Shown here: one piece after another, positions 1,954-63,900 of the stretch | How the letters are laid out: the number at the start of each line of letters is the position of its first letter | How positions within the stretch are numbered: the stretch's first letter is position 1 | Assembly: GCF_963921235.1 (NCBI RefSeq) | Contig: NC_086097.1 | Location: 72,542,001-72,606,000, forward strand | Length of the DNA stretch: 64,000 nucleotides | From: Mobula hypostoma | Lineage: Eukaryota | Reading direction: 5' to 3' | Position numbers and translations under genes: made by a program | Notes under the pieces: model-generated | What the model was told of the DNA's origin: nothing | Database searches by the model: none | Seen by the model: only the letters and a program-made list of their open reading frames with translations

Positions 1954-2370
1954 TAGAAACATAGAACATAGAAAACCTACAGCACAATACAGGCTCTTTG
2001 GCCCACAAAGCTGTGCTGAACATGTTCTTACCTTAGAAATTACCTAGGGTTACCCATAGCCCTCTATTTTTCTAAGCTCCATGTAGGCATCAAGGAGTCT
2101 CTTAAATGACCCCATCGTATCTGCCTCCACCACTGCCACTGGCAGCCCATTCCACACACTCACCACTCTCTGTGTAAAAAATCTTACACCTGACATCTCC
2201 TCTGTACCTACTTCCAAGCACCTTAAATCTGTGCCCTCTCGTGGCAACCATTTCAGCCCTGGAAAAAAGCCTCTGACTATCCACACGATCAATGCCTCTC
2301 ATCATCTTGTACACCTCTATCAGGTCACCTGTCATCCTCCGTCGCTCCAAGGAGAAAAGGCTGAGCTTCT
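1954..2370 (-). mobile_element. CR1 LINE 3' fragment (RT C-terminus, 3' UTR, TTCTATG-type tail)
   Basis: Translates LSLFSLERRRMTGDLIEVYKMMRGIDRV / FFTQRVVSVWNGLP; tail gaaacatagaacatagaa at about 1955-1975; same subfamily as the 60970-64000 copy. Confidence 0.9.
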
Positions 2371-13399: not shown

Positions 13400-15480
13400 T
13401 ACTGTTTCTAACTTCTCATTCATAGGCAGAGGAGACAATGATGCATTCAGTAAAGACAGTTAACCAAAACACATGGTGAATCTGAAAATACTTTGTGGAA
13501 GGATACTGACTACTCTAATATATAGTTTTTCAAAATCATAAAAATGTGAAGCTACCAGTCGTGGCCACAGACCAGGCAAATAGATGATGGAAAGACAGAC
13601 TAAGAAACTTAAAGGGCATTTTAAGAATTAGCTTCTGGATCAGTACAGAAGCATTCTCTTGTATACCAGCATTGAGGGGCACAAAGCCCATATATACATT
13701 CACTGAAAGGCAAGTCAATTTACTGGGATCGGTATCATATGAAGAAGAGGCTCGTTAATTTGAAGATGATGCTTCTCTTTGGCATTTATGATCAAATGGT
13801 GGACAAGTTGAACAAATCTGATGGGTAGGCCACAGAGAACGCCCTCTGCATACAAAGTAGGAGTTGTACCCCTGTGTTCTTAACTAGCGGTGTCCATTGT
13901 CTTTGCCAAACTGTACCTGTCATCTGTTTGTACACAATTAAGCAACACCATCTGACAGCCCATGTTCATAGCAACCAGACTTCTCAAGCCACTGTGGACA
14001 AAATGTTAAAGGCAGCCCCACACACTCTATGCAGGCAAGATGTTAACAAAACCAGAACTAAGAATGTTCCTGAATTTTTATCTTTCCCTTGTTGTGGTTC
14101 AATGCCCTGCCAATTTTTGCCAGATGTCATAAAGCATCAATGGTTCAAGGAGAGTGAACTATTGGAAACAGCAACCACTGTAAGAAATGACTTGGTGTGT
14201 CTGTTCCCATAATAAAGTTTGCTTGAGATGCCTCCAGTTATGGAGGTGAGGTATGGATAAGCCATGTTACGTACTGTTGGATCCAGCAAGAAGAAACTAC
14301 GCTCAGAGAAGATATTGGAAACCATATTTAGAATCAAAGCGTTCCAGCAGATATTTTGAGACAAGCCATTCACTCAGGCCACCAACACCAAATACTTGGA
14401 TAGCTCCCACAATAGTATCCTCACAAATATGGCAGACAGCTATCCTTCTGCCCCCATATATTGAATGTCAGTTATACAGACAGAGTGCCATAGGAAGTGT
14501 GTTACCAAGACTGGCTTCCAAAGAAGGGCATATGAAACATAGAAACGTAGAAAATCTATAATGTATGACATGCTGTGTTTACCCAACAGGCTGGAGAAAG
14601 CGAGTTTCTTGTAGCAGTGTTGGAAATAGCAAGGTTGAAACAGTATTATTTAGTGTTAAAGCCAGTATATGAGTAGAATTTGAGTTGCAGAACTGATTCA
14701 ATAACAAGTTGGGATAAGAATATAAAACTGTCCAAAAATCAAGGCTGTATCAAATTATTATGCCCCAAAAAACTACCAAGTACAATAATGAAGGAACTTC
14801 ACTTGGCACATCTGGGCATAGTTAATATGAAAACATTAGCACATACTTTTGTTTATCGGGCCAGCATAGATAAGGATCTAAAGGAGTTAACCAGCAAGTG
14901 CAGAGTGTACCACCCAATGCTACAGGGAGCACTATTCCTAAAGTATCCACATAATTACTGGGAGAAAGATGTGAACTGCATTTTTGGATGGACTTTCATT
15001 CAAAGTGTAATGGATCATGCATCATCATGGAACACACTGCAGAAGAATTCGATCCATTTTTATGTCACATGAGTTTCCCTTAAAAAATGTTTTGGATAAT
15101 GGTCTGCACTTTCGAGTAATTTCATTTTGAACAGTTTGTGAAACAGAAGTGGAATATTAACAATGTTTCACATAGCCATATGAGGAAGCTGAGAGATCAG
15201 CAAACAAATGGGGAAAAATCAGAGAATTATGTTTATATTACTGTTCCAAGAATTACTTCAATAGAATGTGTGAGGATGTCAGAAACCTTTGCATTTGCCA
15301 ACTGATCTAGGTGCAAGAGGGAAGAATTGTGAGTGTGCACGTGCACCTGAAATGAGTCCTATAGCAGATGAAATATTGTTGATGTACAAGGTGACTGAAG
15401 AGAACTTGGCCGTTATACCTTAAGTGAATTCAAAGATGGGTACTGCACAATCAATATAGTTCACCTAAAAAGATCATAGA
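13400..15480 (+). mobile_element. Highly decayed Ty3/Gypsy LTR-retrotransposon pol remnant
   Basis: RNase H motifs DASSYG (about 14227) and PARRNYAQ; integrase zinc-binding region ELHLAHLGIVNMKTLAHTFVYRASIDKDLKELTSKC (14680-15072 ORF); DNG..F core at about 15095. No LTRs recognised and the boundaries are rough. Confidence 0.65.
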
Positions 15481-16692: not shown

Positions 16693-16954
16693 CCATTTAT
16701 TAAACTTGCATAAAATTCTTAATTAATAGTTGGTACTATAAGCTTTTTGTAAATCTATATTAACCACCACCACTCCATTTTCTTTATCCATCCTCTTGTC
16801 TATTTCATAGAGATAGTCAATGATGTTCATGTAGGGAATGCCCTTAAGAGGGAAGAACTGAAGAGATTTTCTAAAGCAGACACATATTGCTTATTTGTCT
16901 TTGTTTTGTACCTTGGCATTTATTATGTTTTGCACTTTGACATTATCTCTGCAG

Positions 16955-17121
16955 GTACAACAGAGCGGGTATGTCTGATCCAGGGAACAGTGGAAGCTCT
17001 GAATGCAGTTCACAGCTTCATTGCAGAGAAAATCCGAGAAATGCCTCAGAATGTGGCAAAGACAGAACCAGTTAGTATTCTACAGCCTCAGACCACAGTA
17101 AATCCAGATCGCATCAAACAA
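16955..17121 (+). CDS. NOVA1: NOVA1 coding exon (167 nt; C-terminal part of KH1 plus linker; equivalent to mammalian exon 3)
   Basis: (G)[55 protein letters not shown] matches NOVA1 as recalled; acceptor tctctgcag at 16954 (phase 1) and donor CAA/gtaagt at 17122 (phase 0). Confidence 0.97.
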
Positions 17122-19265
17122 GTAAGTTACCAATAATGTTTATTATTAGAATATTGTTTGAATTTGTATTAGCATACACAGATAGTGGTGGAAGGAAGAG
17201 GATGCTGACAAATCTACTCCTTACATAGCGAGTAAAACAATGCTAACTTTAAATGCAAGTCTTTTCAATCAAAAAGCGACTAAATTGAGATTGAGGTTAT
17301 CAGAAATTTAACTTTAAACCTATTTGTCTACAACCTATTTTGATGAGGTGATCAATTAATCATTCACTCAGGTAGCCCCTTCCATCTTCCCAAGCCCATG
17401 TTCATTATTTATGCGTAACTATAATTAATTTAGTTCAAGAAATGGAAGAAAGTTAGATATTGCTACCTTGTGCACAATTCTCTTGCTGATTGTCCTCAAT
17501 TTAACCCTTGATCTCTACGAGTGCATAAATTTCCATAGGTTTATTAATTGTGTTGATGAAACATATTGTTAAAGGAAGACTGTCTGCAATGGTTTTGTGT
17601 AAATAAATAGCAAATGGAAACACTTTTGAGCTGAGAAAAAGAAATACATTCTGATAGTTTACACTTATCTACTTTTCTAGTCAGTGACAATTGTGCAAAA
17701 TTACTACCTTTTCATATAAATCGGTTGTGCACTTCTTAGCATCATATTAGAAGATGAGTTTATCATAATTTTCTTCCTGTCCCTGTGAATTGAACCAACT
17801 ATTTTTCCAATTATGTCATTGTTACTTAATACAGTACAGTTTCAGATGCAATCATTCCTTTTGAAAATGATTACTATCTGAAATATTTTGTTCTATGCTG
17901 CAGTATCATTCATTTATGGTCTAGAATGTGCTACCGTGAGAATTCCCTTTGCAGCCTTTGACATCACTCATTATTCTGTAAAAGCTCTGTGCAATGTTAA
18001 AAAAAAACTGGCATTTGTAACACGATTATTTAAAACAAAAACATGTCAAGCAGTGTGCATATACGAGGAAAATTAGCAAAAAGTATACATTTTTTCAGTC
18101 TTCCATAATATATTGCATATCAAAGGCAACATTTTTGGGATCATGCTATTATTTGTTTTAAATAGGTACAAAATCACTGATAATTCATTAATAATCTTGA
18201 TTCAATTACTCTTCCTGTTGACTATGAAAAATCAGTGTGAAATCTTAGGCGCAAATCTTGAATATTACCAATTTACTGTAATGTGATTTGCTCCCATTCA
18301 GCCTCCATGAGAGGCAATTGCAAGAATTTAAAATCAAAATAATGAAGATTGTTTTTGAGATGAAGGTATTCACATCTGAGTTTTTGTCATGTTCAGCCAT
18401 TTGACGGGAACAAGAGACAATCCAAGTAAAACATCATTTATGGTTTCACATACATTGAAAATATAGATGTTCTGGCCACAGCAACCCAACAGGCCCACAA
18501 TGCACATGAAAAAGAAACAAGATGATTTCCAGAGGGAGGAATTAAATAATTTGCTGTGAATACTTAAGAGAATACAGTTGCTTTTGTAATGTGCAGGGCC
18601 TCTTCTGATGTCTCATGACTTCCTTCCCAGAGAAAACTGGAGGAGCCATGTTAGGTTGTATCCATATTGATTACCAACGCTGCTGGGAAGTTTGATTACA
18701 AACATGTACCCACATGTTAGCTTTAATGTTTGGGATCCCTATAAGTGGCTTTATTGTAATCTTGATCTAACAGTGGTTTGTACAAAAACATTCATATACT
18801 GTGAAGCAACTCTACTTTTCTGCCAGTTTGCATTCTAACAGCAGTGCTGAAAGCTTCACCTTCAATTTCTAGAAACTGAGAATTCAATGCTAACACTAGA
18901 TCTTGCCAAAGAAGGGGGCGAAGAATTTGACTTAAGTCATGTGTATTGTTCGAACAATTAACTATACTTTCACTGCTCTTTCAAAGTTCAGATTCATTAA
19001 AATTAATGGATTGCAATTTATTAATTGGAGCTCAGTTGTATTTAGTACAAGGGACCAAAAGCAAATTTATCCCTCATAATTATTTGTAGAAAATGTGTAA
19101 TCATTCAACTACTATGTAACTACAACTCCCTAAGCATTAAGATCCCATCCATTAAACCTGCCATAAGAGGCAATTCCACACAGTAAATTACATTTCTATA
19201 GAATATTGAACATAGAATAGTACAGCACAGTACAGGTCCTTCGGCCCACAATGTTGTGCCGACCC

Positions 19266-22175
19266 TCAAACCCTGCCTCCCATATAAGCCCTCACCTTAA
19301 ATTCCTCCATATACCTGTCTAGTAGTCTCTTAAACTTCACTAGTGTATCTGCCTCCACCACTGACTCAGGCAGTGCATTCCACGCACCAACCACTCTCTG
19401 AGTGAAAGACCTTCCTCTAATATCCCCCTTGAACTTCCCACCCCTTACCTTAAAGCCATGTCCTCTTGTATTGAGCAGTGGTGCCCTGGGGAAGAGGCGC
19501 TTGCTATCCACTCTATCTATTCCTCTTATTATCTTGTACACCTCTATCATGTCTCCTCTCATCCTCCTTCTCTCCAAAGAGTAAAACCCTAGCTCCCTTA
19601 ATCTCTGATCATAATGCATACTTTCTAAACCAGGCAGCATCCTGGCAAATCTCCTCTGTACCCTTTCCAATGCTTCCACATCCTTTCTATAGTGAGGTGA
19701 CCAGAACTGGACACAGTACTCCAAGTGTGGCCTAACCAGAGTTTTATAGAGCTGCATCATTACATCGCAACTCTTAAACTCTATCCCTTGACTTATGAAA
19801 GCTAACACCCCATAAGCTTTCTTAACTACCCTATCCACCTGTGAGGAAACTTTCAGGGATCTGTAGACATGTACCCCGAGATCCCTCTGCTCCTCCACAC
19901 TACCAAGTATCCTGCCATTTGCTTTGTACTCTGCCTTGGAGTTTGTCTTTCCAAAGTGTACCACCTCACACTTCTCTGGGTTGAACTCCACCTGCCACTT
20001 CTCAGCCCACTTCTGCATCCTATCAATGTCTCTCTGCAATCTTTGACAATCCTCTACACTATCTACAACACCACCAACCTTTGTGTCATCTGCAAACTTG
20101 CCAACCCACCCTTCTACCCTCACATCCAGGTCATTGATAAAAGTCACGAAAAGTAGAGGTTCCAGAACAGATCCTTGTGGGACACCACTAGTCACAATCC
20201 TCCAATCTGAATGTACTCCCTCCACAACCACCCTCTGCCTTCTGCAGGCAAGCCAATTCTGAATCCACCTGGCCAAACTTCCCTGGATCCCATGCCTTCT
20301 AACTTTCTGAATAAGCCTACTGTGTGGAACCTTGTCAAATGCCTTAATAAAATCCATATAGATCACATCCACTGCACTACCCTCATCTATATGCCTGGTC
20401 ACCTCCTCAAAGACTGCCCTTCACAAAGCCATGCTGACTGTCCCTGATCAGACCATGATTGTCTAAATGCCTATAGATCCTATCTCTAAGAATCTTTTCC
20501 AACAGCTTTGCCACCACGGACGTAAGGCTCACTGGTCTATAATTACCCAGATTATCCCTACTACCTTTTTTGAACAAGGGGACAACATTCGCCTCCCTCC
20601 AAGCCTCCGGTACCATTCGCGTGGACAACGAGGACATAAAGATCTTAGCCAGAGGCTCAGCAATCTCTTCTCTCGCCTCGTGGAGCAGCCTGGGGAATAT
20701 CCTGTCAGGCCCCAGGGACTTATCTGTCCTAATGTATTTTAACAACTCCAACACCTCCTCTCCCTTAATATCAACATGCTCCAGAACATAACCTCACTCA
20801 TATTGTCCTCACCGTCATCAAGTTCCCTCTCATTGGTGAATGCCGAAGTGAAGTATTCATTGAGGACCTCGCTCACTTCCACAGCCTCCAGGCACATCTT
20901 CCCACCTTTATCTCTAATCGGTCCTACCTTCACTCCTGTCATCCTTTTTTTCTTCACATAATTGAAGAATGCTTTGGGGTTTTCCTTTACCCTACTCGAC
21001 AATGCCTTCTCATGCTCCCTTCTTGCTCTTCTCAGCCCCTTCTTAAGCTCCTTTCTTGCTTCCCTATATTCCTCAATAGACCCATCTGATCCTTGCTTCC
21101 TAAACCTCATGTATGCTGCCTTCTTCCACCTGACTAGATCTTCCACCTCACTTGTCACCCATGGTTCCTTCACCCGACCATTCTTTATCTTCCTCACCAG
21201 GACAAATTTATCCCTAACATCCCGCAAGAGATCTCTAAACATCGACCACATGTCCATAGTACATTTCCCTGCAAAAACATCATCCCAATTCACACCCGCA
21301 AGATCTAGCCTTATAGCCTCATAATTTGCCTTTCCCCAATTAAAAATTTTCCTGTCCTCTCTGATTCTATCCCTTTCCATGATAATGCTAAAGGCCAGGG
21401 AGCAGTGGTCACTGTCCCCCAGATGCTCACCCACTGAGAGATCTGTGACATGACCCGGTTCATTAGCTAGTAGTAGATCTAGTATGGCATTCCCCCTGGT
21501 CGGCCTGTCCACATACTGTGACAGGAATCCGTCCTGGACACACTTAACAAACTCTGCCCCATCTAAACCCTTGGAACTAATCAGGTGCAAATCAATATTA
21601 GGGAAGTTAAAGTCACCCATGATAACAACCCTGTTATTTTTGCACCTTTCCAAAATCTGCCTCCCAATCTGCTCCTCTGTATCTCTGCTGCTACCAGGGG
21701 ACCTATAGAATACCCCCAATAGAGTAACTGCTCCCTTCCTGTTCCTGACTTCCACCCATATTGACTCAAAAGAGGATCCTGCTACATTACCCACCCTTTC
21801 TGTAGCTGTAATAGTATCCCTAACCAGTAATACCACCCCTCCTCCCCTTTTTCCGCCCTCTGTATCCCTTTTAAAGCACTGAAATCCAGGAATATTGAGA
21901 ATCCATTCCTGCCCTGGTGCCAGCCAAGTCTCTGTAATGGCCTCCACATCATAATTCCATGTATGTATCCAAGCTCTCAGTTCATCACCTTTGTTCCTGA
22001 TGCTTCTTGCATTGAGGTACACACATTTCAGCCCTTCTACCTTACTGTCTTTACACCATTTATTCTGCTTCTCTTTCCTCAAAGCCTCTCTGTATGCTAT
22101 ATCTGGCTTTACTCCATGCACTTCTTTCACTGCTGTATCACTCTGGGTCCCATCCCCCTCGCAAATTAGTTTAAA
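19266..22175 (-). pseudogene. CR1 ORF2 broken by two frameshifts
   Basis: Compared with the intact copy at 52109-55054, a 1-bp deletion near 20790 and an approximately 26-bp deletion near 20413 split ORF2 into the 463, 115 and 378 aa ORFs. Confidence 0.9.
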
Positions 22176-23090
22176 CCCTCCCGAACCATGCTAGCAAACC
22201 TACCTGCAAGGGTATTGCTCCCCCTCGAGTTCAGGTGCAACCCATCCAATCTGTACAGGTCCCACCTTCCCCAGAAGAGATCCCAATGATCTAAAAATCT
22301 AAAACCCTGCTCCTTGCACCAACTCCTCAGCCACGCATTCAACTGCCATCTCCTCTAATTCTTACCATCCCTGTCACGTAGCACTGGCAGCAATCCTGAG
22401 AACACCACCCTTGAGGTCCTGTTCTTCAGCCTTCTGCCTAGTTCCCGAAACTCACAATTCAGGACCTCATCCCTCTTCCTGCCTATGTCATTGGTCCCAC
22501 GTATCACGACTTCTGGTTGCTTTCCCTCTCATACCAGGATGTCGTGCACCCGGACCCTGGCACCCAGGAGGCAACAAACCATGCGGGTGGCCTTCTCATG
22601 TCCACAAAATCTCCTGTCTGCTCTCCTGACTATAGAGTCTCCAATGACGACAGCTCTCCTCTTCTCCGTCCCACCCTTCCGCACCACAGGGTTAGACTCA
22701 GTGCTGGAGGCCCTGCCACTGTGGCTCACACCTGGTCGGTCGTCCTCGCCAACAATATCCAGGATGGTAAACTTATTATTCAGGGGAATGGCTACATGGG
22801 TGCTCTGTACTACCTGTCTGCTCACCTTCACTTCCCCCCTCTGACTGTCACCCAGCGACCTGCTTCCAACAGCTTAGGTGTGACTATCTCCCTGTGGCTC
22901 TCATCTATGACTGCCTCATTCTCCCTTATGAGTCAAAGGTCATCCAGCTGCTGCTCCAGATTCCTTACACGGTCTTCCCGATCGCCCAGCCGTATGCACT
23001 TCTGGCAGATGTGACTCTGCGGGAGAGGGAAGTTCCCCCAAGACTGCCACATCTCACATGAGAGGCACATCGCCATCTCAAGAGACATTG
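22166..23090 (-). pseudogene. CR1 ORF1 (zinc finger/coiled coil plus SGNH esterase), disrupted
   Basis: MSLEMAMCLSCEMW..HICQKC..LEQQLDDL then an in-frame stop; RRAVVIGDSIVRRADRRFCG; ends ..HWDLFWGRWDLYRLDGLHLN..GLN*. Confidence 0.8.
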
Positions 23091-32834: not shown

Positions 32835-34240
32835 GGCAGAATCAAAAATGGTGATGAATACAGAGCTGAAGTTGTTTGAATGCATGCAGTAGACAGAATA
32901 AGGTAGATAATCTTGTAACACAGTTAAAGATTGGCAGGTATGACATTGTGGGCATCACTGAGTCAGGACTGAAAGAAAATCATAAGTGGGAGCTTAACGT
33001 CAAAGAATATATATTGTGTAAAAAGCACAGGCAGGTCGGTGGGTGGGAGGGTGGCTCTGTTGGTAAAAGAAAAGAAATCAAATCCTTAGAAAGAGGTGAC
33101 ATAGAATCGGAAGATGTAGAATCCTTGTGGGTAGATTTATGAAACTACAAGGCTAAAAATACCCTTATGGGAGTTATGCAGGCCTCTGAACAGTAGCTGA
33201 AATGTAGGATACAAATTATAATGGGAGATAGAAAAGGCAAGTAAAAAGAGCAATGTTACATATGGTCTCGGGCAATTTCAATATGCAGGTAGATTGGGAA
33301 AATCTAGTTGGTGCTGGATCACAAGAAAAGGAATTTCTGGAATGCCTTCAAGATGCTTTTCAGAGCAGCTTGTGATTGGGTCCAGTAAGGGGATGGAAAT
33401 TCTGAATTGGGTGTTGTGTAATGAACCAGATGTAATTAGGGAGCTTAAGGTAAAGGAACCCTTTGGAGATGGTGATTTTGGACCACTTCTTTTCATGTTA
33501 TATTGCAACGAATTGGATAATGGAATTGATGGCTTTGTAGCCAAGTTTGTGGATGATATGAAAATAGGTGGAAGGGCACGTTGAGTCATTGGTGATCAAG
33601 GAAAATGCAATATTAGCATTTATTTGTAGAGGGATAGAATATAAGAGCAAGGATGTAATGCTAAGGCATTAATCAGACCCCACTTGGGAGTATTGTGAGC
33701 AGTTTTAGGCCCCTTATCTAAGAAGATATGTGCTGCCATTTGAGAGGGTACAGAGGAGGTTCATGACAATGATCCCAGGAATGAAAGGGTTAACATATGA
33801 GGAGCATTTGATGGCTTTACACCTGTACATGCTGGAGTTTAGAAGAATGGGTGGGGATCTCATTGAAACTTATCGAATATTGAAAGGCCTAGATAAATTG
33901 AATGTGTAGAAGACGTTTCTTGATAGTGGGTGAGTGTAGGGCCAGTGGGCTCAGCCTCAGAATAGAGGGACATCCATTAGAACAGAGATGAGGGGGAATG
34001 TCTTTAGCCAGAGGGTAGTGAATCTGTGGAATTCATTGCCATGGATGGCTGTGGAAGCCAAGTCACTGAGTATATTTAAAGCAGAAGTTGCTAGATTCTT
34101 GATTAGTCAGAGTGACAAAGGTTACGGAGAGAAGGTAGGAGAATGGGATTGAGGGAGATAATAAATCAGACATGATGGATTGGTGGAGGAGACTCAACGG
34201 GCCTAATAGTCCAATTCTTCTCCAAATTCTTCTGTTCTTT
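32835..34240 (+). mobile_element. Decayed CR1 with a large internal deletion joining endonuclease to RT
   Basis: YDIVGITESGL endonuclease motif; the 33294-33584 ORF fuses ..VKEPFGDGD to GPLLFMLY..VAKFVDDMKIGG; CR1 3' end follows. Confidence 0.8.
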
Positions 34241-40319: not shown

Positions 40320-41400
40320 GAAGTATTTTAAATGGTTCGAGAATTGGTTAACCAATAGAAGGCAGAGAGTTGGTATAAATGGGTGTTTCTCTGGTTTGCA
40401 GTAAGTGCTGAGTGGAGTGCCACAGGGGTCAGTGCTGTTAATGATATACTGGACATTAATAATTTGGAAGAGAGGGCCAATTGTGACATATCTAAGTTTC
40501 CTAATGAGACTAAATTCAGTGGAAATACAAATTCTGCTGAAGATGCAGAGGGATATAGATAGGTTAGGTAAGTGGGAAAGATTCTGCCAGATGATGTACA
40601 ATATTGGTAAATGTAAGTTCGTCCACTTTGGAAGGAAAAATAGAAGATCAGATTATTATTAAAATTGTGAAAGATTGCAGCATGCTTTTGTGCAGAGAGA
40701 CTTGGGAGAGCTTGTGCATGAATTGCAAAAGGTTGGTTTGCGGGTGCAACTGGTTATCAAGAAGGCAAATGGACTCCATTGCTAGAGAAATTGAATTTAA
40801 GAACAGGGAGATTAAGCTGCAATTGTACAGGGTACTGATGAAGCCGCAGCTGGAGTACTGCATGCAGTCCTGGTCACCTTATCTGAGAAAAGATATATTG
40901 GTTTTGGAGGCAGTGGAAAGAAGATTCATCAGGTTGATTCTGGAGATGAGGGGTTAGCCTATGTGGAGAGATTGAGTCGCTTGGGACAGTACTTACTGAA
41001 AGTCAAAGTGAAAGGGGATCTCATAAAAACAAAAAAATTATGAAAGGGAAAATAAGATAGAGACAGAAAAATTATTTCCATGGTAAGTAAGACTAGAACT
41101 AGGAGGCATAGCCTCAAGATTCAAGGGAATAGAATTAGGACAGAGTTGAAAGGAAATTGTTTTCCCCAGAGAGGAATGAATTTGTTGAATTCTCTGTCTT
41201 GGGAAGCAGTAGAGGCCACCTCATTAAATATATTTAAGACAGTTAGATAAATTTTATGCTGAGCAGGGGAATTGAGGGTTATAGGGAAAAGGCAGGTATG
41301 TGGAGCTGATTCTGCGGCCAGATCAGCCATGATCTTGTTGAATGGCAAAGCAGGGTTCAATGGGCCACATAGCCTATTTTGTTCCTATTTCTTATATTTA
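40320..41400 (+). mobile_element. Decayed CR1 RT and 3' fragment
   Basis: [20 protein letters not shown] and LYRVLMKPQLEYCMQSWSPYLRKDI. Confidence 0.85.
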
Positions 41401-48170: not shown

Positions 48171-48197
48171 TATGTACATACAGTTTCTTTGAAAAAC

Positions 48198-48745
48198 CCT
48201 ATACATCTGCAAGACGATGCTGAGGATGTTCTACGAGTCTGTGGTGGCCAGTGCGATCATGTTTGCTGTTGTGTGCTGGGGCAGCAGGCTGAGGGTACCA
48301 GACACCAACAGAATCAACAAACTCATTCGTAAGGCCAGTGATGTTGTGGGGTTGGAACTGGACTCTCTCACGGTGGTATCTGAAAAGAGGATGCTGTCTA
48401 AGTTGCATGCCATCTTGGACAATGTTTCCCATCCAGTACATAATGTACTGGGTGGGCACAGGAGTACATTCAGCCAGAGACTCATTCCACCAAGATGCAA
48501 CACAGAGCGTCATAGGAAGTCATTCCTGCCTTTGGCCATCAAACTTTACAACTCCTCCCTTGGAGGGTCAGACACCCTGAGCCAATAGGCTGGTCCTGGA
48601 CTTATTTCATAATTTACTGGCATAATTTACATATTACTATTTAACTATTTATGGTTCTATTCCTATTTATTATTTATGGTGCAACTGTAACGAAGACCAA
48701 TTTCCCCCGGGATGAATAAAGTATGACTATGACTATGACTATGAC
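48198..48745 (+). mobile_element. Young Rex1-like LINE 3' end with (ATGACT)n tail
   Basis: Open frame MLRMFYESVVASAIMFAVVCWG..TERHRKSFLPLAIKLYN; AATAAAGT then about four ATGACT units. Confidence 0.85.
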
Positions 48746-51291: not shown

Positions 51292-51992
51292 CATTTAATT
51301 GCCTGTCCCTAATTACTCTTGGGAAGGTAGTGACAAGCTACCTCATGAATAGCTGTAGTCCTTGAGGTGTTGGTGTACCCACCATGCTGTTAGGGAAGGA
51401 GGTCCAGGATTGCGACCCAATGATGGTGAAGGAACAATGATATAGTTCCAAAATTAGGATGGTGTTTGGTTTGGAGGGTGTCTTCCATAAGGTGGTATTT
51501 CCATGCCTTTGCTAACCTGTCCGTTTAGCTGGTGGAAGCTGTAGGTTTAGAAAGTGCTTTCCAATGAGTCTTGATGAATCGCTGTTTCTGTGTGTTGGTA
51601 GTGGAGTGACTGAAATGTTGTGCATGGGCTGTGTATCCAGTGGGTTCTGTGCCCTGTATGAGCTTCTTGAGTGTTGTTGAAGTGCCATTCATCCTGGCTA
51701 GTGGAGAGCATTGAGCCTTGTAAGATGGTGGACATACTTTGGGGAGTCAGGGAGTGAGATACCCACCACAGAATTTTTACCTTCTGTTCTGCTCTTGTTG
51801 ACACACTGCGGATATGAGTACTTCAATTCAGTTTCTGTCAAAGGTAATCACTAAGATATTGATAGTGGGGGATTCAGTGATGGTAGTGCTATTGATTGTC
51901 ATGGGGTGCTAGATAGATTTTCTGAATATCACCACCTGAGGAGTCATGAATGGTGTTGAACGTTGAGCAGTCATCAGTAAACATGCCTATTT

Positions 51993-54900
51993 TAGATTTT
52001 AGATCATTGGCATCTCTTCTGCGGAAGGTGGGACCTGTACAGATTGGATGGGTTGCACCTGAACTCGAGAGGGAGCAATATCCTTGCAGGTAGGTTTGCT
52101 AGCATGGTTTGGGAGGGTTTAAACTAATTTGCGAGAGGGATGGGACCCAGAGCGATAGAGCAGTGAAAGAAGTGCATGGAGTAAAGGCAGATCTAACATA
52201 CAGAGAGGCTTTGAGGAAAGAGAAGCAGAATAAATGGTGTAAAGACAGTAAGGCAGAAGGGCTGAAATGTGTGTACCTCAATGCAAGAAGCATCAGGAAC
52301 AAAGGTGATGAACTGAGAGCTTGGATACATACATGGAATTATGATGTGGAGGCCATTACAGAGACTTGGCTGGCACCAGGGCAGGAATGGATTCTCAATA
52401 TTCCTGGATTTCAGTGCTTTAAAAGGGATAGAGAGGGAGGAAAAAGGGGAGGAGGGGTGGCATTACTGGTCAGGGATACTATTACAGCTACAGAAAGGGT
52501 GGGTAATGTAGCAGGATCCTCTTTTGAGTCAATATGGGTGGAAGTCAGGAACTGGAAGGGAGCAGTTACTCCACTGGGGGTATTCTATAGGCCCCCTGGT
52601 AGCAGCAAAGATACAGAGGAGCAGATTGGGAGGCAGATTTTGGAAAGGTGCAAAAATAACAGGGTTGTTATCATGGGTGACTTTAACTTCCCTAATATTG
52701 ATTGGCACCTGATTAGTTCCAAGGGTTTAGATGGGGCAGAATTTGTTAAGTGTGTCCAGGATGGATTCCTGTCACAGTATGTGGACAGGCCGACCAGGGG
52801 GACTGCCATACTAGATCTAGTACTAGGTAATGAACTGGGTCAGGTCACAGATCTCTCAGTGGGTGAGCATCTGGGGGACAGTGATCACCGCTCCCTGGCC
52901 TTTATAATTATCTTGGAAAAGGATAGAATCAAAGAGGACAGGAAAATTTTTAATTGGGGAAAGGCAAATTATGAGGCTATAAGGCTAGAACTTGCGGGTG
53001 TGAATTGGGATGATGTTTTTGCAGGGAAATGTACTATGGACATGTGGTCGATGTTTAGAGATCTCTTGCGGGATGTAAGGGATAAATTTGTCCCGGTGAG
53101 GAAGATAAAGAATGGTAGGGTGAAGGAACCATGGGTGACAAGTGAGGTGGAAAATTTAGTCAGGAGGAAGAAGGCAGCATACATGTGGTTTAGGAAGCAA
53201 GGATCCGATGGGTCTACTGAGGAATATAGGGAAGCAAGAAAGGAGCTTAAGAAGGAGCTGAGAAGAGCAAGAAGGGGGCATGAGAAGGCCTTGGCGAGTA
53301 GGGTAAAGGAAAACCCCAAGGCATTCTTCAATTATGTGAAGAAAAAAAGGATGACAGGAGTGAAGGTAGGACCGATTAGAGATAAAGGTGGGAAGATGTG
53401 CCTGGAGGCTGTGGAAGTGAGCGAGGTCCTCAATGAATATTTCTCTTCGGTATTCATCAATGAGAGGGAACTTGATGATGGTGAGGACAATATGAGTGAG
53501 GTTGATGTTCTGGAGCATGTTGATATTAAGGGAGAGGAGGTGTTGAAGTTGTTAAAATACATTAGGACAGATAAGTCCCTGGGGCCTGACGGAATATTCC
53601 CCCGGCTGCTCCATGAGGCGAGAGAAGAGATTGCTGAGCCTCTGGCTAGGATCTTTATGTCCTCGTTGTCCACGGGAATGGTACCGGAGGATTGGAGGGA
53701 GGCGAATGTTGTTCCCTTGTTCAAAAAAGGTAGTAGGGATAGTCTGGGTAATTATAGACCAGTGAGCCTTACGTCTGTGGTGGCAAAGCTGTTGGAAAAG
53801 ATTCTTAGAGATAGGATCTATAGGCATTTGGAGAATCATGGTCTGATCAGGGACAGTCAGCATGGCTTTGTGAAGGGTAGATCGTGTCTAACAAGCCTGA
53901 TAGAGTTCTTTGAGGAGGTGACCAGGCATATAGATGAGGGTAGTGCAGTGGATGTGATCTATATGGATTTTAGTAAGGCATTTGACAAGGTTCCACACAG
54001 TAGGCTTATTCAGAAAGTTAGAAGGCACGGGATCCAGGGAAGTTTGGCCAGGTGGATTCAGAATTGGCTTGCCTGCAGAAGGCAGAGGGTGGTGGTGGAG
54101 GGAGTACATTTAGATTGGAGGATTGTGACTAGTGGTGTCCTACAAGGATCTGTTCTGGGACCTCGACTTTTCGTGATTTTTATTAACGACCTGGATGTTG
54201 GGGTAGAAGGGTGGGTTGGCAAGTTTGCAGATGACACAAAGGTTGGTGGTGTTGTAGATAGTGTAGAGGATTGTCAAAGATTGCAGAGAGACATTGATAG
54301 GATGCAGAAGTGGGCTGAGAAGTGGCAGATGGAGTTCAACCCGGAGAAGTGTGAGGTGGTACACTTTGGAAGGACAAACTCCAAGGCAGAGTACAAAGTA
54401 AATGGCAGGATACTTGGTAGTGTGGAGGAGCAGAGGGATCTCGGGGTACATGTCCACAGATCCCTAAAAGTTGCCTCACAGGTGGATAGGGTAGTTAAGA
54501 AAGCTTATGGGGTGTTAGCTTTCATAAGTCGAGGGATAGAGTTTAAGAGTCGCGATGTAATGATGCAGCTGTATAAAACTCTGGTAAGGCCACACTTGGA
54601 GTATTGTGTCCAGTTCTGGTCACCTCACTATAGGAAGGATGTGGAAGCATTGGAAAGGGTACAGAGGAGATTTGCCAGGATGCTGCCTGGTTTAGAAAGT
54701 ATGCATTATGATCAGAGATTAAGGGAGCTAGGGCTTTACTCTTTGGAGAGAAGGAGGATGAGAGGAGACATGATAGAGGTGTACAAAATAATAAGAGGAA
54801 TAGATAGAGTGGATAGCCAGCGCCTCTTCCCCAGGGCACCACTGCTCAATACAAGAGGACATGGCTTTAAGGTAAGGGGTGGGAAGTTCAAGGGGGATAT

Positions 54901-55128
54901 TAGAGGAAGGTTTTTTACTCAGAGAGTGGTTGGTGCGTGGAATGCACTGCCTGAGTCAGTGGTGGAGGCAGATACACTAGTGAAGTTTAAGAGACTACTA
55001 GACAGGTATATGGAGGAATCTAAGGTGGGGGCTTATATGGGAGGCAGGGTTTGAGGGTCGGCACAACATTGTGGGCCGAAGGGCCTGTACTGTGCTGTAC
55101 TATTCTATGTTCTATGTTCTATGTTCTA
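51993..55128 (+). mobile_element. 5'-truncated young CR1 LINE with uninterrupted ORF2
   Basis: Starts in the ORF1 C-terminus (HWHLFCGRWDLYRLDGLHLN..GLN*) and ends in (TTCTATG)n; CTATTT at both junctions (51987-51992 and 55126-55131). Confidence 0.97.
52109..55054 (+). CDS. CR1 ORF2: APE endonuclease plus reverse transcriptase (981-codon open frame; true start not AUG-defined)
   Basis: YLNARS, ITETW, MGDFN, LDL and SDH endonuclease motifs; YRPVSLTS, QHGF, YMDFSKAFD, QGSVLGP and FADD RT motifs; no stops. Confidence 0.92.
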   Translation: MGGFKLICERDGTQSDRAVKEVHGVKADLTYREALRKEKQNKWCKDSKAEGLKCVYLNARSIRNKGDELRAWIHTWNYDVEAITETWLAPGQEWILNIPGFQCFKRDREGGKRGGGVALLVRDTITATERVGNVAGSSFESIWVEVRNWKGAVTPLGVFYRPPGSSKDTEEQIGRQILERCKNNRVVIMGDFNFPNIDWHLISSKGLDGAEFVKCVQDGFLSQYVDRPTRGTAILDLVLGNELGQVTDLSVGEHLGDSDHRSLAFIIILEKDRIKEDRKIFNWGKANYEAIRLELAGVNWDDVFAGKCTMDMWSMFRDLLRDVRDKFVPVRKIKNGRVKEPWVTSEVENLVRRKKAAYMWFRKQGSDGSTEEYREARKELKKELRRARRGHEKALASRVKENPKAFFNYVKKKRMTGVKVGPIRDKGGKMCLEAVEVSEVLNEYFSSVFINERELDDGEDNMSEVDVLEHVDIKGEEVLKLLKYIRTDKSLGPDGIFPRLLHEAREEIAEPLARIFMSSLSTGMVPEDWREANVVPLFKKGSRDSLGNYRPVSLTSVVAKLLEKILRDRIYRHLENHGLIRDSQHGFVKGRSCLTSLIEFFEEVTRHIDEGSAVDVIYMDFSKAFDKVPHSRLIQKVRRHGIQGSLARWIQNWLACRRQRVVVEGVHLDWRIVTSGVLQGSVLGPRLFVIFINDLDVGVEGWVGKFADDTKVGGVVDSVEDCQRLQRDIDRMQKWAEKWQMEFNPEKCEVVHFGRTNSKAEYKVNGRILGSVEEQRDLGVHVHRSLKVASQVDRVVKKAYGVLAFISRGIEFKSRDVMMQLYKTLVRPHLEYCVQFWSPHYRKDVEALERVQRRFARMLPGLESMHYDQRLRELGLYSLERRRMRGDMIEVYKIIRGIDRVDSQRLFPRAPLLNTRGHGFKVRGGKFKGDIRGRFFTQRVVGAWNALPESVVEADTLVKFKRLLDRYMEESKVGAYMGGRV

Positions 55129-55699: not shown

Positions 55700-56895
55700 C
55701 CATAAGACCATTAGACATAGGAGCAGAATTAGGCCATTTGGTCCATTGGGTCTGCTCCTCCATTCCATCATGGTTGATTTATTATCCCTCTCAAACCCAT
55801 TCTCCTGCCTTCTCGCTGTAACCTTTGACCCCCCTCCTTTTACTAATGAAGAACCTATCAAGCTCAACTTTAAATATATTCAATAACTTGGCCGCCACAG
55901 ACATCTGTGGCAATGAATTCCACAGATTCACCACCCTCTGATTAAAGAAATTCCTCCTCATCTCTGTTCCAAGTGGACATCCCTCTATTCTGAGGCTGAG
56001 CCCTCTGGTCCTAGACTCCTCCACTATAGGAAACTTACTCTGCACATTCACTCTATCTAGGCCTTTCAATATTCAATAGTTTTCAGTGAGATTCCCCATT
56101 GTTCCAGCGAGTACTAGCCCAGAGCCACCATACACTCCTTATACATTAACCCTTTCATTCTCGAGATCATTCTCATGAACCTCCTCCAGACCTTTCCAAT
56201 GCCAGCACATAAGGTGCCCAAAACTGTTCACAATACTCCAAGTCCAGTGCCTTATAAGGCCTTAGCATTACATCCTTGCTTTTGCATTCTAGTCCTCTCA
56301 GAATGAATGCTAACATTGCATTTGCCTTCCTTACCACCGACTCAACCTGCATGAGGACTCCCAAGTCCCTTTACACCTCTGATTTTGAATTTTCTCCTGT
56401 TTCAGAAAATAGTTTACACCTTTATTCCTTCTACCAAAGTGCATAACCATACACTTCACTACATTATATTCCATCTGCCACTTCTTTGCCCATTCTCTCA
56501 ATCTGTCTTAGATTGTAAGAACTATGGCGGACTCCCTGCTTCCTCAATACTATCTGCCCTTCCACCTATCTTTGTATCATCCACAAACATGGCCACAAAC
56601 CATCCATTCCATCATCCAAATCACTGACGTGTATCGTGCGTAGAAGTGGTCCCAACGCAGATCCCTGTGGAACACTACTGGTCACCAGCAGACGATCAGA
56701 AAATCCTCCCGTTATTCCCACTCATTGTCCCCTGCAATCAGCTAATCTTCTATCCATGATAGTATCATTCCTGCATGGGCATTTATCTTGTTAAGCAAGC
56801 TCATGTGCGGCACCTTGCCAGAGACCTTCTGGAAATCTAAGTAAACAAAATCCACTGATTCTCCCTTGTCCATCCTGCCTGTTATTTCCTTTATT
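55700..56895 (-). mobile_element. Decayed CR1 RT and 3' fragment
   Basis: FVYLDFQKVSGKVPH and NFFNQRVVNLWNSLP; CATAAGACCATTAGACATAGG tail at 55701. Confidence 0.85.
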
Positions 56896-56909
56896 TCCAG
56901 TTGATGTGA

Positions 56910-57170
56910 CACTGTTGCAGCTTGGGGCATCTGGAGTTCAGAATTCAATTCCAGCGCTGTTCTCCAAGGAGCCTCTGTACGTCTTGCCTGTGGAATGTGT
57001 GGGTTTCCTCCAGGTCCTCTGGTTGCCCCCACCCCCAATAGTCCAAAGACATAGCAGACAGGTTCATGAGTCATTATAAGTTGTCCTGTGATGTTAGAGT
57101 TCATTGGGTTTGCCGGGGCAGCGTGGCTCACAGGTCCTGCTCTGTGCTGTATCACTAAATAAATAAATAA
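56910..57170 (+). mobile_element. V-SINE-like element
   Basis: GAGTTCAGAATTCAATTCC B-box-like motif, GTGGGTTTCCTCCAGGTCCTCTGGTT..GTCCAAAGAC domain and (TAAA)n tail. Confidence 0.7.
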
Positions 57171-60100
57171 TTGTTCCTAATTATTCTTCAAATCAGACAT
57201 TTTGCTGCATTTTCCTTCCTCCGTGTTCTTAACACTTCATCCACTTCCCACTCATTTCATTCCATCTTTAATACATCTTGACGTTTCAGAAAAGCACTCC
57301 ATTCATGAAACACCTACAGTGTTCTCCTTTTCATATTGAAACCAAACACCTCCCCAGTACTATCCCCAAAAGAATACCTTTGCAGTCTGAAAATTTCAAC
57401 ATCGACTTAACTCAATGCCCTCCAATCCTGCCAGTCAATATCTTTTTACACCAGTCGAATTCCAAACCATTTCCTATTATCCCACTTTTCCCTTTTTAAC
57501 ACCTACCTTTCCATTTTTATGTATCTCAAGCAAAGCTACAAATATTTCTTATGATATATCCATTCTCTGACATTACTTTTTCCAGTATGCTTGAATTCTA
57601 AAGCAATTTTTAAAATATAATTTTCCTGTATTTTTCAACTTTTGCAAATCAATGACCTCTCTAGCCCATCATGAATAATGGAAGATCTTATATATGCATA
57701 CACGTAGTTACTTAGGGCTTGGATTTTGCACTCAGTGGTGAACAAACGACACTTGCTGGTTATTTCAATTACAGCGACCCACAGATACTCCATATTCTTT
57801 AGTGTGGCACTTTACGGTCACTGAGTGTCCAAAGCAGTGTGGCGCCCTCTGCAGGGAATAAGGACCTGTATATGAAGTAGTAGGAAATAGCAGTTCCAGT
57901 CCGTTCAACCTTCCTGCTTGATGAATGCAATATGAATAAGTAATTATCACACATTTCAAATACAATTCAAAGTTTAAAACAATATACAGAAAACAAACAT
58001 ACATAAGGAAAAGAAATGTAGAATTAACAGAGAGATATATAAAAGAACAAGAAAAGTTTTAAAAATATTGATGGAATAAACAATAGAAAATTTGAATTAA
58101 ACCTGAAGTATTGAGACCATATATTTCCAAAAAGAATTTTATCAATACCAGGAAGGCAGTTTGGGAATAATTTTAATGTTATTAAAATAAAATTCCTTTA
58201 ATTTTAATGGACATGTTTAATGGCATGTTTACTGGACATGCATTGAGTAGGCAATTTATATCTAGTCTCTTCGCAATTTATGATACAGCAAACCTTATCG
58301 AGGAATAAGAAAATTTGGATAACTTCCTGCTTTCCAATGTCTTAGAGCCTTGGCAATATTGGAAGTTGCTTTTCAAGTTACTCGAATAACTAAAATGGTC
58401 ATAATTGATATTCCTATGCAAAATCCTATATTCCTATTTTATCAGCCTGAACTTGAATATTATCATTCCTAATATTCCATTGTCACAATATTTCCACTAA
58501 CAAGATTGTTTTCTGTTATGGTCCTTTAGGAGATACGCCTTTTGATATCTCATTTAAGTGGTCATTTTACTGTGTCAATGTTTACAGGTTGTTCACGTAC
58601 AGAAGTCAAGTGCTAAGTACAGCCCAAATCTTACCAGATATTCTTCTGCACTAAACATCACTGAACAGTCAAATGGAAATTCCTGTTGGTTCATCCTCAT
58701 CTTCAAACACCCCATTTCTGATTAGCAGCTTAGATCAATAGCAGGCCTGAATTGGTCTTTTTAGCCTTTCTAATTGATGATATCTTAGTGAGATCTCATA
58801 AACTAATCTTTCAATCCCTTTTTTAAACAATTAGTTATAAGAGTTATTGTAAACTTTGATAACTTTTAACTATCATAATGATTAATATTAAAACGGCTAT
58901 TCAGTCCTGACAGCAAGTATAATTTTTTATTTCCATATTACTGAACAGATTGCAGTAAATATCACCTCCAGTACAGATAAGGGCAAAGGAACACAAAATA
59001 AAATGTGTTCTGTGAGTCTCCTGCCACACCAATGTACTTTACATGATTAGAAATTGTTGTAATAATACTTTAAAATTCCCTTTTATTCACTGGTGTATAC
59101 ATGAGTATTTAATGTGATTAGGTGCTTCCATAATCCATTCCAATTATTGCAATTTTGATATATTATCAATTTTTATCACTATACAACGATGTACCACTAT
59201 ACCAGACCATCATTGCTTTTAGCTTTGTACATGAAATTAAAATCAGGAGCTCAAGATCTCCAAGGAGTAGGAGCTTCGGGTTTTTTATTTCCTGCATTAT
59301 TGCAGTATAGAAGTTTAATGAAGTGAACACGTGGATGGTGTTGGAAAGAGAGAGATTATGTTTCACTGGACATTGGGTCAGAAAGTAATTGCACCATTAA
59401 AATTGGCTTCACTTGTATTAGGGTCCCGAGAGGAGGGATAAAAAGATGGTTCAGAAGGGCTTTAAATCAGAAAATGTGAGGACTCAGTTGAAAAGCATGA
59501 TATTTATAAAAGCCCTAAATGAAATGAAAGGGAAAAAACTGTAACTGTCAGAATTGTCTTCAGCTGCTACAAATAAAACAAAGGCTTCACATATAAAAAG
59601 GAAGAGAAAAGTAAAACCATGTGAGTGAGTAAAACATTAGAACTGGTCAAGCCCATGGTCACATAATCATAGGGATGAAATAGGTGGATATAACTCCGGT
59701 GGCTGGCATTCTGACCATTACTGAGACGTGACTGCACTGACAACTGAAATGGAAATTAAATATGGCAAGTTTTAAGTCAAAGGAAATGGTGGAGAATTGA
59801 TGTAACCATAGAGATTCAGACTGATGGAAAATATAATGAAAGGTATGATAAGGTAAGATATTATCATCACTATCATCACTTAGATAATAGTGATGATAAT
59901 ATGTAGTACAGTGTGGTGTTTGAAAGGAAAAAACAAAAGCCAACTAGCTTTAAGTAAAACTGTTCTCATGCAATAAGCCTTGGTAAGCTGAACTTGTCTG
60001 TAAATTAGTAAAATGACAAAGATCAATCAGAGGTGTTAAAATGTAACCTAACTTTAAATTATTTGATATAGAATCAATTTATATTGAGAGCAGGGTCTCT

Positions 60101-60969: not shown

Positions 60970-63900
60970 TGTAGAAATTACCTAGGTTTACACATAGCCC
61001 TCTATTTTTCTAAGCTACATGTACCTATCCAAGAGTCTCCGAAAAGACCCTTTTGTGTTTGCCACCACCATCGCCGGCAGCCCATTCTGCACACTCACCA
61101 CTCTCTGTGTAAAAAACTTAACCCTGACATCTCCTCTGTACCTACTTCCAAGCACCTTAAAACTCTGCCCTGTCATGTAAGCCATTTCAGCCCTGGGAAA
61201 AAGCCTCTGACTATCCACACAATCAATGCCTCTCATCATCTTATACACCTCTATCAGGTCACCTCTCATCCTCCATCACTCCAAGGAGAAAAGACCAAGT
61301 TCACTCAACCTATTCTCATAAGGTATGCTCCCCAATCCAGGTAACATCCTTGTAAATCTCCTCTGCACCCTTTCTATAGTTTCCACATCCTTCCGATAGT
61401 GAAGTGACCAGAACTGAGCACAGTACTCCAAGTGGGGTCTGACCAGGGTCCTATATAGCTGTAACATTACCTCTCTGCTCTTGATCTCAATTCCACAGTT
61501 GATGAAGGCCAATACACCGTATGTCTTCTTAACCACAGAGTCAACATGCGCAGCAGCTTTGAATATCCTATGGACTCGGACACCAAGATCCCTCTGATCC
61601 TCCACACTGCCAAGAGTCTTACCATTAATACTATATTCTGCTATCATATTTGACCTACCAAAATGAAACACCTCACACTTAACTGGGTTGAACTCCATCT
61701 GCCACTTCTCAGCCCAGTTTTGCATCCTATCAATTTCCTGCTGTAACTTCTTGACAGCCCTCCACCCCCAACCTTTGTGTCATCGGCAAATTTACTAACC
61801 CATCCCTCCACTTCCTCATCTATGTCATTTATAAACATCACGAAGAGAAGGGGTCCCAGGACAGATCCCTGAGGCACACCACTGGTCACCGACCTCAATG
61901 CAGAAATATGACCCGTCTACAACCACTCTTTGCTTTCTGTGGGCAAGCCAATTCTGGATCCACAAAGCAAAGTCCCCTTGGATCCCATGCCTCCTTACTT
62001 TCTCAATAAGCCTTGCATGGGGTACCTTATCAAATGCCTTGCTGAAATCCATATACGCTACACCTACTGCGCTACGTTCATCAATGTGCTTAGTCACATC
62101 CTCAAAAAATTCAATCAGGCTCATAATGCACGACCTGCCTTTGGCAAAGCCATGCTGACTACTGTATTCCTAATCATATTATGTCTCTCCAAATGTTCAT
62201 AAAACCTGCCTCTCAGGATCTTCTCCATCAACTTACCAACCACTGAAGTAAGACTCACTGGTCTATAATTTCCTGGGCTATCTCTCCTCCCTTCTTGAAT
62301 AAGGGAACAACATCTGCAACCCTCCAATCCTCTGGAACTTCTCCCATCCCCATTGATGAGCAAAGATCATTGCCAGAGGCTCAGCGATCTCCTCCCTCAC
62401 CTCCCACATTAGCCTGGGGTATACCCCATCCGGTCCCAATGACTTAACCAACTTGATGCTTTCCAAAAGCTCCAGCACATCCTCTTTCTTAACATCTCTA
62501 TGCTCAAGCTTTTCAGTCCGCTGTAAGTCATCCCTACAATCGCCAAGGTCCTTTTCCAAAGGGAATACTGAAGCAAAGTATTAATTAAGTACCATTGCTA
62601 CCTCCTCCATTCCAAACACACTTTTCCACTGTCACACTTGATTGGTCCTATTCTCTCATGTCTTATGCTCTTGCTCTTCACATACTTGTAGAATGCCTTG
62701 GGGTTTTCCTTAATCCTGCTTGCCAAGGCCTTCTCATGGCCCCTTCTGGCTCTCCTAATTTCACTCTTCTTCCTGCTAGCCTTATAATTTTCTAAATCTC
62801 TATCATTGCCTAATTTTTTGAACCTTTCATAAGCTTCTTCTTGACTAGATTTTCAACAGCCTTTGAGCACCATGGTTCCTGTACCCTACCATCCTATGCA
62901 GAATGCCACACAAATATCCCTTGAACATTTGCCACATTTCTGCTATAAATTTCCCTGAGAACATCTGTTCCCAATTTATGCTTCCAAATTTCTGCCTGAT
63001 AGCATCGTATTTCCCCTTAGTCCAATAAAACGTTTTCCTGACTTGTCTGCTCCTGTCCTTCTCCAATGCTTTGGTAAAGGAGATAGAATTGTGATCACTA
63101 TCTTCAAAATGCTCTCTCAGTGAGAGACCTGACACCTGACCAGGTTCATTTCCCAATACCAGATCAAGTACAGCCTCTCCTCTTGTAGGCTTATCTACAT
63201 ATGGTATCAGTAAACCTTCCTGAACACACCTAACAAACTCCACCCCATCTAAGCACCTTGCTCTAGGGAGATGCCAATCAATACTGGGGAAATTAAAATC
63301 TCCCATCGCAACAACCCTGTTATTAGTGCACCATTTCAGAAACTGTCTCCCTATCTGCTCTTCGATGTCCCTGTTACTATTGGGTGGTCTATAAAAAAAC
63401 ACTCAGTAGAGTTATCTGACCCCTTCCTGTTTCAACCCACAGAGATTCAGTAGACAATCGCTCCTGACTTCCTCCTTTTCTGCAGCCGTGACACTATCTC
63501 TAATCAGCAGTGCCATGCCCCCACCTGTTTTGCCTCCCTTCCTGTCCTTTCTGAAACACCTAAAGCCTGGCACTCTAAGTAGTCATTCCTGCCCCCGAGC
63601 CATCCAAATCTCTGTATTAGCCACAGCATCATAGTTCCAAGTACTGATCCATGATCTGAGCTCATCCGCTTTATTCATGATACCCCTTGCATTAAAATAG
63701 ACACATCTCAAACCATCAGTCTGAGTACGTTCCTTCTCTATCACCTGCCTTTCCTCCATCTCTTCAGTTTGATTCCCATCCCCAGCAATTCTAGTTTAAA
63801 CTCTCCCCAATAGCCTTAGCAAACCTCCCTTTCAGGATATTGGTTCCCCTCAGATTCAAGTGCAACCTGTCCTTATTGTACAGCTCAGGCCTGCCCCAAA

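Follow-up and report, generated by a model that had tools for sequence, protein, structure and literature searches.

A conserved slippery heptamer and candidate -1 frameshift site at the ORF1-ORF2 junction of esterase-type CR1 retrotransposons

The window, the whole 64,000-nt stretch of DNA analysed here (Mobula hypostoma, NCBI RefSeq assembly GCF_963921235.1, contig NC_086097.1, positions 72,542,001 to 72,606,000 of the forward strand), contains several copies of a CR1 long interspersed nuclear element (LINE). Our subject is the junction between the two open reading frames (ORFs) of this element (Table 1). The copy with an intact ORF2 is 5'-truncated, beginning near position 51990, and retains no more than about 45 codons of ORF1, so it shows the layout of its parent and is itself unable to translate ORF1 from the start. 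It is 95.8% identical to an inverted copy (19198-22304) across 3,134 nt. Its 3' end is a TTCTATG-type repeat at about 55102-55128 with no poly(A); we take a short-tandem-repeat end of this kind, together with 5' truncation, to be a defining trait of CR1. ORF2 matches the Pfam profiles PF03372 (Exo_endo_phos, E=1.8e-15; residues 54-257, numbered from the heptamer described below) and PF00078 (RVT_1, E=3.6e-33). In an intact family-A member (L014), ORF1 is 312 aa long and matches Lipase_GDSL_2 (PF13472, E=1.7e-12). The ORF1 profile matches PDB entry 4c1b (E=1.3e-41), and the N-terminus of ORF1 in the family is zinc-finger/leucine-zipper-like. The nearest named homologues of the L014 ORF1 are from devil and manta rays, with those of other rays, sharks, Xenopus, turtles and lizards next. 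Both labels, CR1 and L2-like, are presumptive here, given on domain layout and known motifs. By its domains and homologues, the element is an esterase-type CR1 LINE, ordinary and abundant. It resembles the canonical esterase CR1 of vertebrates in its ORF1 (zinc-finger/leucine-zipper-like N-terminus and SGNH esterase), its APE endonuclease-reverse transcriptase (RT) ORF2 and its repeat-ending 3' untranslated region (UTR). This type is CR1 subgroup 7, with ORF1 type IVB, in PMC4120745 and is surveyed in PMC13343379 (papers are cited by PMC identifier for the parts of their texts that were available).

Table 1. Coordinates of the CR1 junctions and associated features in the window.
Feature	Position	Strand	Remarks
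5'-truncated CR1 LINE copy, young family A	51990..55128	+	~45 ORF1 codons, junction, intact ORF2, short 3' UTR
ORF1 remnant, SGNH esterase C-terminus	51990..52127	+	Translation with DGLHLN motif, ending G-L-N-stop; TAA 52125-52127
ORF2, -1 frame, APE endonuclease + RT	52103..55054	+	983 aa stop-to-stop; 978 aa counted from heptamer
Slippery heptamer T_TTA_AAC	52118..52124	+	X_XXY_YYZ register in ORF1 frame (...GGT TTA AAC TAA)
Variable linker	52118..52258	+	-1 frame open, no AUG; enters endonuclease start at 52259
Five-G run position, candidate 3' stimulator	52135..52139	+	10-nt spacer from heptamer; reads GAGGG here
First in-frame ATG of ORF2	52673..52675	+	Within endonuclease domain (MGDFN)
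Longer family-A copy	19198..23088	-	ORF1 start codon at 23088; stops and frameshifts break ORF1 and ORF2
Second family-A junction	22154..22175	-	Heptamer 22169-22175, TAA 22166-22168, intact five-G run 22154-22158
Family-B junction	63779..63800	-	Heptamer 63794-63800 after AGT (Ser), TAG 63791-63793; decayed

A preliminary description of this locus had reported a heptamer followed by a stop codon at the three CR1 junctions of the window, and it is present at all of them. TTTAAACTAR occurs four times in the window against 0.60 expected, a number reached in 0 of 100 shuffles; the fourth match, at 1682, has no surrounding ORF1 or ORF2 frame. As also described, ORF2 follows the 52118 heptamer in the -1 frame, the open stretch of which encodes both the Exo_endo_phos and the RVT_1 domain. 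The -1 frame of the inverted copy is likewise open into ORF2, for 483 codons. The family-B copy is out of register, with 86 nt from the heptamer to the endonuclease start vs 141 nt in the intact members of its family. The first AUG of ORF2 does lie inside the endonuclease domain, as had been noted, and is codon 186 counted from the heptamer, or 191 from the previous stop; the earlier figure of 189 has a different origin of counting. From these features and the comparisons below, it is very probable that ORF2 is made by programmed -1 ribosomal frameshifting (PRF), as an ORF1-ORF2 (esterase-endonuclease-RT) fusion.

ORF1 ends were counted genome-wide from an upstream anchor, the DGLHLN codons, lying a fixed distance away, with T_CTA_AAY left uncounted and little overlap between the variant classes. 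The exact heptamer followed by TRR accounts for 13,286 ends, or 92.6% of the 14,348 counted. The variants comprise 439 ends with a first base other than T, 265 with a Leu wobble base other than A and 358 with AAT. The first 100 matches listed for each variant class are scattered through all families, the pattern expected of decay following insertion. A non-slippery TTCAAAC subfamily, hinted at by L126 and L133, was rejected: its 118 copies genome-wide are sporadic in all families.

For comparisons between families we used 22 lineages, namely 14 of the 47 clusters of this genome and eight single copies from metagenome contigs. The 33 clusters not used have one or two members each, and many consist of decayed copies or of copies chosen for a variant heptamer. 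The last Leu codon is TTA in 22/22 lineages and the last Asn codon AAC in 21/22; elsewhere in the same set, TTA makes up 7/68 of Leu codons and AAC 14/34 of Asn codons. The codon preceding TTA (GGT, GCT, TGT, AGT, ACT, GAT, TCT, CAT, TAT or TCG) encodes nine amino acids, yet its third base is T in 21/22 lineages, the exception giving G_TTA_AAC. Among the 18 colinear lineages, TTA encodes the final Leu (17/17) and AAC the final Asn (17/17), and all nine control columns, in which the residue is kept in at least 14 of the 18, vary synonymously. ORF1 homologues with an intact tail, from sharks, rays, Xenopus, turtles and lizards, end in x-L-N in 54 of 56 cases, and x is encodable by a T-ending codon in 52 of these 54. 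We conclude that the heptamer is kept at the nucleotide level beyond the need to code for Leu-Asn.

Bases can also be frozen by coding in two frames. A dual-frame protein constraint, with L-N at the ORF1 end and F-K-L at an upstream start of ORF2, or plain inheritance, would then account for the heptamer with no recoding; at the ORF1 end neither L nor N varies, and the lineages share ancestry. However, the -1 frame is shut one to five codons upstream of the heptamer in 16/22 lineages, which makes an earlier ORF2 start impossible and leaves almost no room before F-K-L. The esterase ORF1s of L2-like elements end without L-N, and the median upstream nucleotide identity between lineages is 58%, so inheritance alone is insufficient to fix the heptamer sites. 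We regard this explanation as very improbable. The position of the upstream stop is itself recurrent: it lies five codons ahead of the heptamer in 11 of the 14 lineages of this genome (in the window, the 52104-52106 region) and two codons ahead in two more, with L004, L014 and L087 as examples. It may reflect ancestry or a guard against premature shifts.

The stop region also bears on the least probable of the explanations considered, in which ORF2 is read from an RNA that is spliced or has a start of its own, the stop region serving as splice acceptor, or arises by polymerase slippage on the T/A runs. In TAG lineages TTTAAACTAG ends in an acceptor-like YAG. However, the stop is TAA in 8/22 lineages and TGA in one, so the acceptor AG is not conserved. 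No GT..AG joint or indel was found at the site among the matches listed, in contigs of four runs whose RNA status was guessed. Runs of three are too short for polymerase slippage.

Downstream of the heptamer, the reading frame is conserved and the sequence is not. The linkers of the 22 lineages are 105-339 nt long (the length being assumed for three), always a multiple of three, and mostly less than 45% alike. Their -1 frame contains seven stops in 1,133 codons vs 83 and 128 in 1,111 for the other frames, and all seven fall in lineages represented by one copy each. From the heptamer to the endonuclease seed, the modal distances in the five best-sampled families are 150, 150, 246, 135 and 138 nt, all open multiples of three, and intact family-B members share the 141-nt open linker length of family A. 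Since the linkers diverge in sequence yet stay open, selection appears to preserve the openness of the frame. Very long open linkers occur in family H (318 nt; L123 and L237) and family F (246 nt; L128 and L129); these are Lys/Arg-rich and unrelated to those of other families.

The main rival to frameshifting is termination followed by reinitiation, with translation starting again in the -1 frame, either from an AUG or from a linker codon other than AUG (e.g. CUA over the stop), giving a separate ORF2 protein (ORF2p). L1 is reportedly translated in this way, and a UAAUG overlap is reported for SART1 (PMC3708506, PMC3894237). Near-cognate codons are present in the linker of the copy at 51990 (ATT 52127, GTG 52163, CTG 52262), and the L2-like esterase elements described below do use an overlapping AUG. 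However, no start codon overlapping or near the ORF1 stop is conserved across the 22 lineages, and no start position is shared between them. No AUG precedes the first endonuclease motif in 11/22 lineages, among them the five best-sampled families. Reinitiation also leaves unexplained the seven fixed bases of the heptamer, four of them synonymously free, amid control codons that vary. A UGGGA motif 3' of the stop is missing from reptile-like and distant lineages, and its placement is unlike that of a calicivirus-type reinitiation signal. We therefore consider reinitiation unlikely, though clearly less so than the two explanations above. In the window, the ATG of GGGATGGGA opens an eight-codon mini-ORF in the ORF1 frame (52140-52166, +), the TGA of which overlaps a GTG in the ORF2 frame; this ATG is not conserved, because family B lacks it. 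Some reptile/bird-like CR1s (L145, L147 and L152) carry an ATG in frame at the fifth codon past the heptamer, directly before the G run, where their sister copies have non-ATG codons. Such an ATG could be a cause of ORF2 being annotated as separately initiated.

Two elements with a related esterase ORF1 and an L2-like endonuclease start (L171 and L178) have neither L-N nor the heptamer at the ORF1 end. Instead, a -1-frame AUG overlaps their last ORF1 codons (L171:2184-2192 and L178:738-746). To judge from their sequences, these elements are a natural control, with a related ORF1 and a different coupling. Consistently, the match to the solved ZfL2-1 esterase ends before the L-N end of the ORF1 profile. 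Another L2-like esterase element (L159, near 2420) also has a -1-frame AUG over its last ORF1 codons.

Metagenome contigs yielded 42 loci, of which 19 stop short of the ORF1 end, three are L2-like and 20 have readable CR1 junctions. Seventeen of the latter carry the exact heptamer, one G_TTA_AAC and two single-base variants. Ten metagenome ORF1s are 31-38% identical to that of family A. In a tree of ORF1 tails, six metagenome loci cluster with ORF1s of turtles and lizards (100/99), and another three make up a clade of their own (100/99); the positions of L171, ownI and ownM were disregarded, the first because its row was translated out of frame and the other two because they are on very long branches. 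A search for remoter ORF1 families with the pattern DGxHL[S/T] returned mostly unrelated matches (4 of 30 loci anchored). No relative was found in viral contigs. Genome contigs gave a single relative, a 506-nt ORF1-like fragment without the junction (L183), which is filed under a Providencia assembly and looks like vertebrate contamination. The same appears to be true of a CR1 ORF1 protein filed under Pseudomonas aeruginosa (P0017).

A second conserved feature lies 3' of the stop. The preliminary description had noted a G-rich tract there, which is confirmed, and had presented GGGATGGGA as the shared element; what is conserved is instead a run of five G's. It begins 11 nt past the last base of the heptamer, with G in 22, 22, 21, 21 and 21 of the 22 lineages. 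The flanking -1-frame residues vary (eight and eight different codons) while the G's stay, and the central Gly of the run is GGG in 20/21 cases vs 30/86 elsewhere in the linkers. Genome-wide, the combination heptamer-stop-N7-G5 has 22,790 matches vs 16 for a reversed control. The copy at 51990 has one G>A change in the run (52136), where G is the majority base in contigs of four other runs. A conserved 3' motif at a fixed, longer spacer is also a trait of protein-stimulated PRF. The G run is the best candidate for a stimulator, and this is the least certain part of the proposed mechanism. A four-tract G-quadruplex was rejected, as only one or two G runs are conserved.

Several points weigh against frameshifting. 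When the 70 nt after the stop were folded in the 22 lineages, no shared stem-loop was found, in agreement with the preliminary description, which had seen no clear pseudoknot; the tools used make no direct pseudoknot prediction. Folding z-scores lie between -2.2 and +1.3; J and L169 alone come near z=-2. Nor does the G run have a shared long-range partner: the best duplex partners are scattered over unrelated positions, and in several young families the DNA examined downstream of the junction lacks a C4 run. The stem-loop or pseudoknot 5-9 nt downstream that marks the canonical -1 cassette was not found. With no shared fold or distant partner, we do not class the junction as a canonical structure-stimulated cassette, and the lack of a structured stimulator speaks for reinitiation. 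A bare slippery heptamer usually shifts weakly. An in-frame linker AUG is present in 10/22 lineages, at unshared positions, and one more lies inside the first endonuclease motif; these lineages could reinitiate. Two less conserved upstream columns, Phe TTT (11/11) and Ala GCT (11/11), are also uniform where the residue is kept. Because the lineages share descent, their counts cannot be treated as independent trials, and 10 of the 22 are represented by one copy only. Seven of 176 junction candidates were dropped for having no stop region within two mismatches, the set having been re-anchored on the heptamer. A search for longer ORF1 proteins found no naturally fused in-frame ORF1-ORF2 protein, which is a weak objection. 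Finally, the LINEs that have been studied experimentally (L1 and SART1) do without frameshifting according to PMC3894237, PMC3708506 and PMC5009743. The search for fusions did return three longer ORF1 proteins, rejected as host-gene or extra-domain annotations, apparently chimeric gene models.

Set against these points, the junction combines a heptamer in the X_XXY_YYZ register of the zero frame, conservation of its nucleotides and an open -1 ORF that requires no start codon. The earlier reading of a gag-pol-like ORF1-ORF2 fusion had named two sequence tests, and both came out in its favour: the heptamer is conserved beyond coding need, and every well-sampled family has its ORF2 in the -1 frame. 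Neither synonymous variation of the heptamer among families nor a variable frame offset, which would have spoken against it, was observed. On this comparative evidence, we conclude that the junction is a real and deeply conserved signal of the recoding type.

The heptamer has well-known counterparts. PMC5009743 counts U_UUA_AAC with the heptamers most prone to shifting on mammalian ribosomes and records G_UU(A) as a variant shift site of equine arteritis virus. The CR1 junction shares with nidovirus ORF1a/1b and retroviral gag-pol the heptamer (U_UUA_AAC of infectious bronchitis virus), its register, a polymerase in the -1 frame and a short overlap, and the G_UUA_AAC exception among CR1 lineages is of the equine arteritis virus type. 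It differs from them in having no 3' stem-loop or pseudoknot 5-9 nt on, in a stop that abuts the heptamer and in belonging to an element that has no long terminal repeats (a non-LTR element). According to the part of PMC5009743 available, the usual spacer is 5-9 nt, arterivirus -2 shifts and the shifts of cardioviruses have spacers of 11-14 nt, and natural G-quadruplex stimulators are not known. The protein-stimulated shifts of arteriviruses (nsp1beta with PCBP) and cardioviruses resemble the CR1 junction in having a conserved 3' element farther out than usual. In CR1, however, this element is a G run, a candidate stimulator with a spacing comparable to theirs.

Among non-LTR elements, Dictyostelium TRE5-A and TRE3-A need a -1 frameshift for ORF2 translation, as stated in a figure legend of PMC5911963; the available part of PMC5006619 has nothing further on it. 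The idea of frameshifting therefore has precedent in non-LTR elements, although the TRE elements differ from CR1 in lineage and ORF1 type. L1, SART1 and L2-type esterase elements share with CR1 a bicistronic RNA and a low output of ORF2p. Unlike CR1, they carry an AUG at the ORF1 stop or close to it, give a separate ORF2p and lack a slippery heptamer.

We found no report of CR1 frameshifting in a literature search that left outside its scope the original 1997 papers on CR1 of chicken and turtle, that of Kapitonov and Jurka (2003), Repbase and supplements; an earlier remark may exist in these. The words 'frameshift' and 'overlap' do not occur in the main texts of PMC4120745 and PMC13343379, the available parts of which do not take up the translation of ORF2, nor does 'frameshift' occur in those of PMC3905857 and PMC3708506. 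The available part of PMC4255032 uses 'frameshift' of decay, and 'CR1' was not found in the accessible part of the Atkins review. Within the literature searched, the CR1 junction appears to be a known mechanism in an unreported place, with an atypical candidate stimulator.

In the proposed mechanism, most ribosomes would terminate at the ORF1 stop and release the ~312-aa ORF1 protein (ORF1p). In a minority, the tRNA-Leu at UUA and the tRNA-Asn at AAC would slip back by one base in tandem, so that the ORF1 stop is missed and translation goes on through the linker, the endonuclease and the RT. The product would be a fusion of about 1,290 aa (312 + 976) reading G-L-N then L-I-C at the junction, with the linker as a flexible tether. 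Frameshifting would fix a low ratio of ORF2p to ORF1p, and the fusion would tether the enzyme to ORF1p multimers in the manner of Gag-Pol. The unstructured G run would be a protein-binding or ribosome-contact site, possibly aided by pausing at the adjacent stop; under reinitiation, it would help to retain the 40S subunit. Taken at its fullest, the proposal is that the dominant LINE family of most vertebrates makes a Gag-Pol-like fusion by -1 frameshifting from cartilaginous fish to reptiles and beyond, and that the driver of the shift is no RNA fold but a single-stranded motif of five G's, which lies exactly ten bases downstream and is bound by a protein of the host or the element or by the ribosome entry channel. 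We offer this complete version tentatively, at somewhat less than even probability.

The rest of the window contains further decayed LINE fragments, CR1-like or otherwise RT-like, at 61015-63710 (-), 1958-2367 (-), 33222-33584, 40595-40957, 56742-57176, 6057-7070 and 48193-48588. A decayed fragment at 14677-15072 (+) is presumably a gypsy-type integrase, with an HxxH zinc-binding-like region. An ORF stretch at 16753-17136 (+) resembles an exon of a NOVA-type KH-domain gene, so the LINEs of the window probably lie within the introns of that gene.

The CR1 group is the dominant retrotransposon of most vertebrate species (PMC13343379), and ORF2 translation is 'an interesting and important question', treated as open, in the available part of PMC3894237. 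If frameshifting is confirmed, the ORF2p of CR1 would begin at the AUG of ORF1, and ORF2 starts annotated at internal AUGs would be wrong. The CR1 enzyme would bear a membrane-binding esterase, and engineered CR1 assays would need an intact junction. The candidate frameshift cassette is shorter than 100 nt and hence directly testable. It would put the coronavirus heptamer to wide use in cells, together with a stimulator that is unusual and unstructured, and would represent, if the reading of the G run also holds, a cellular, G-rich counterpart to protein-stimulated viral frameshifting.

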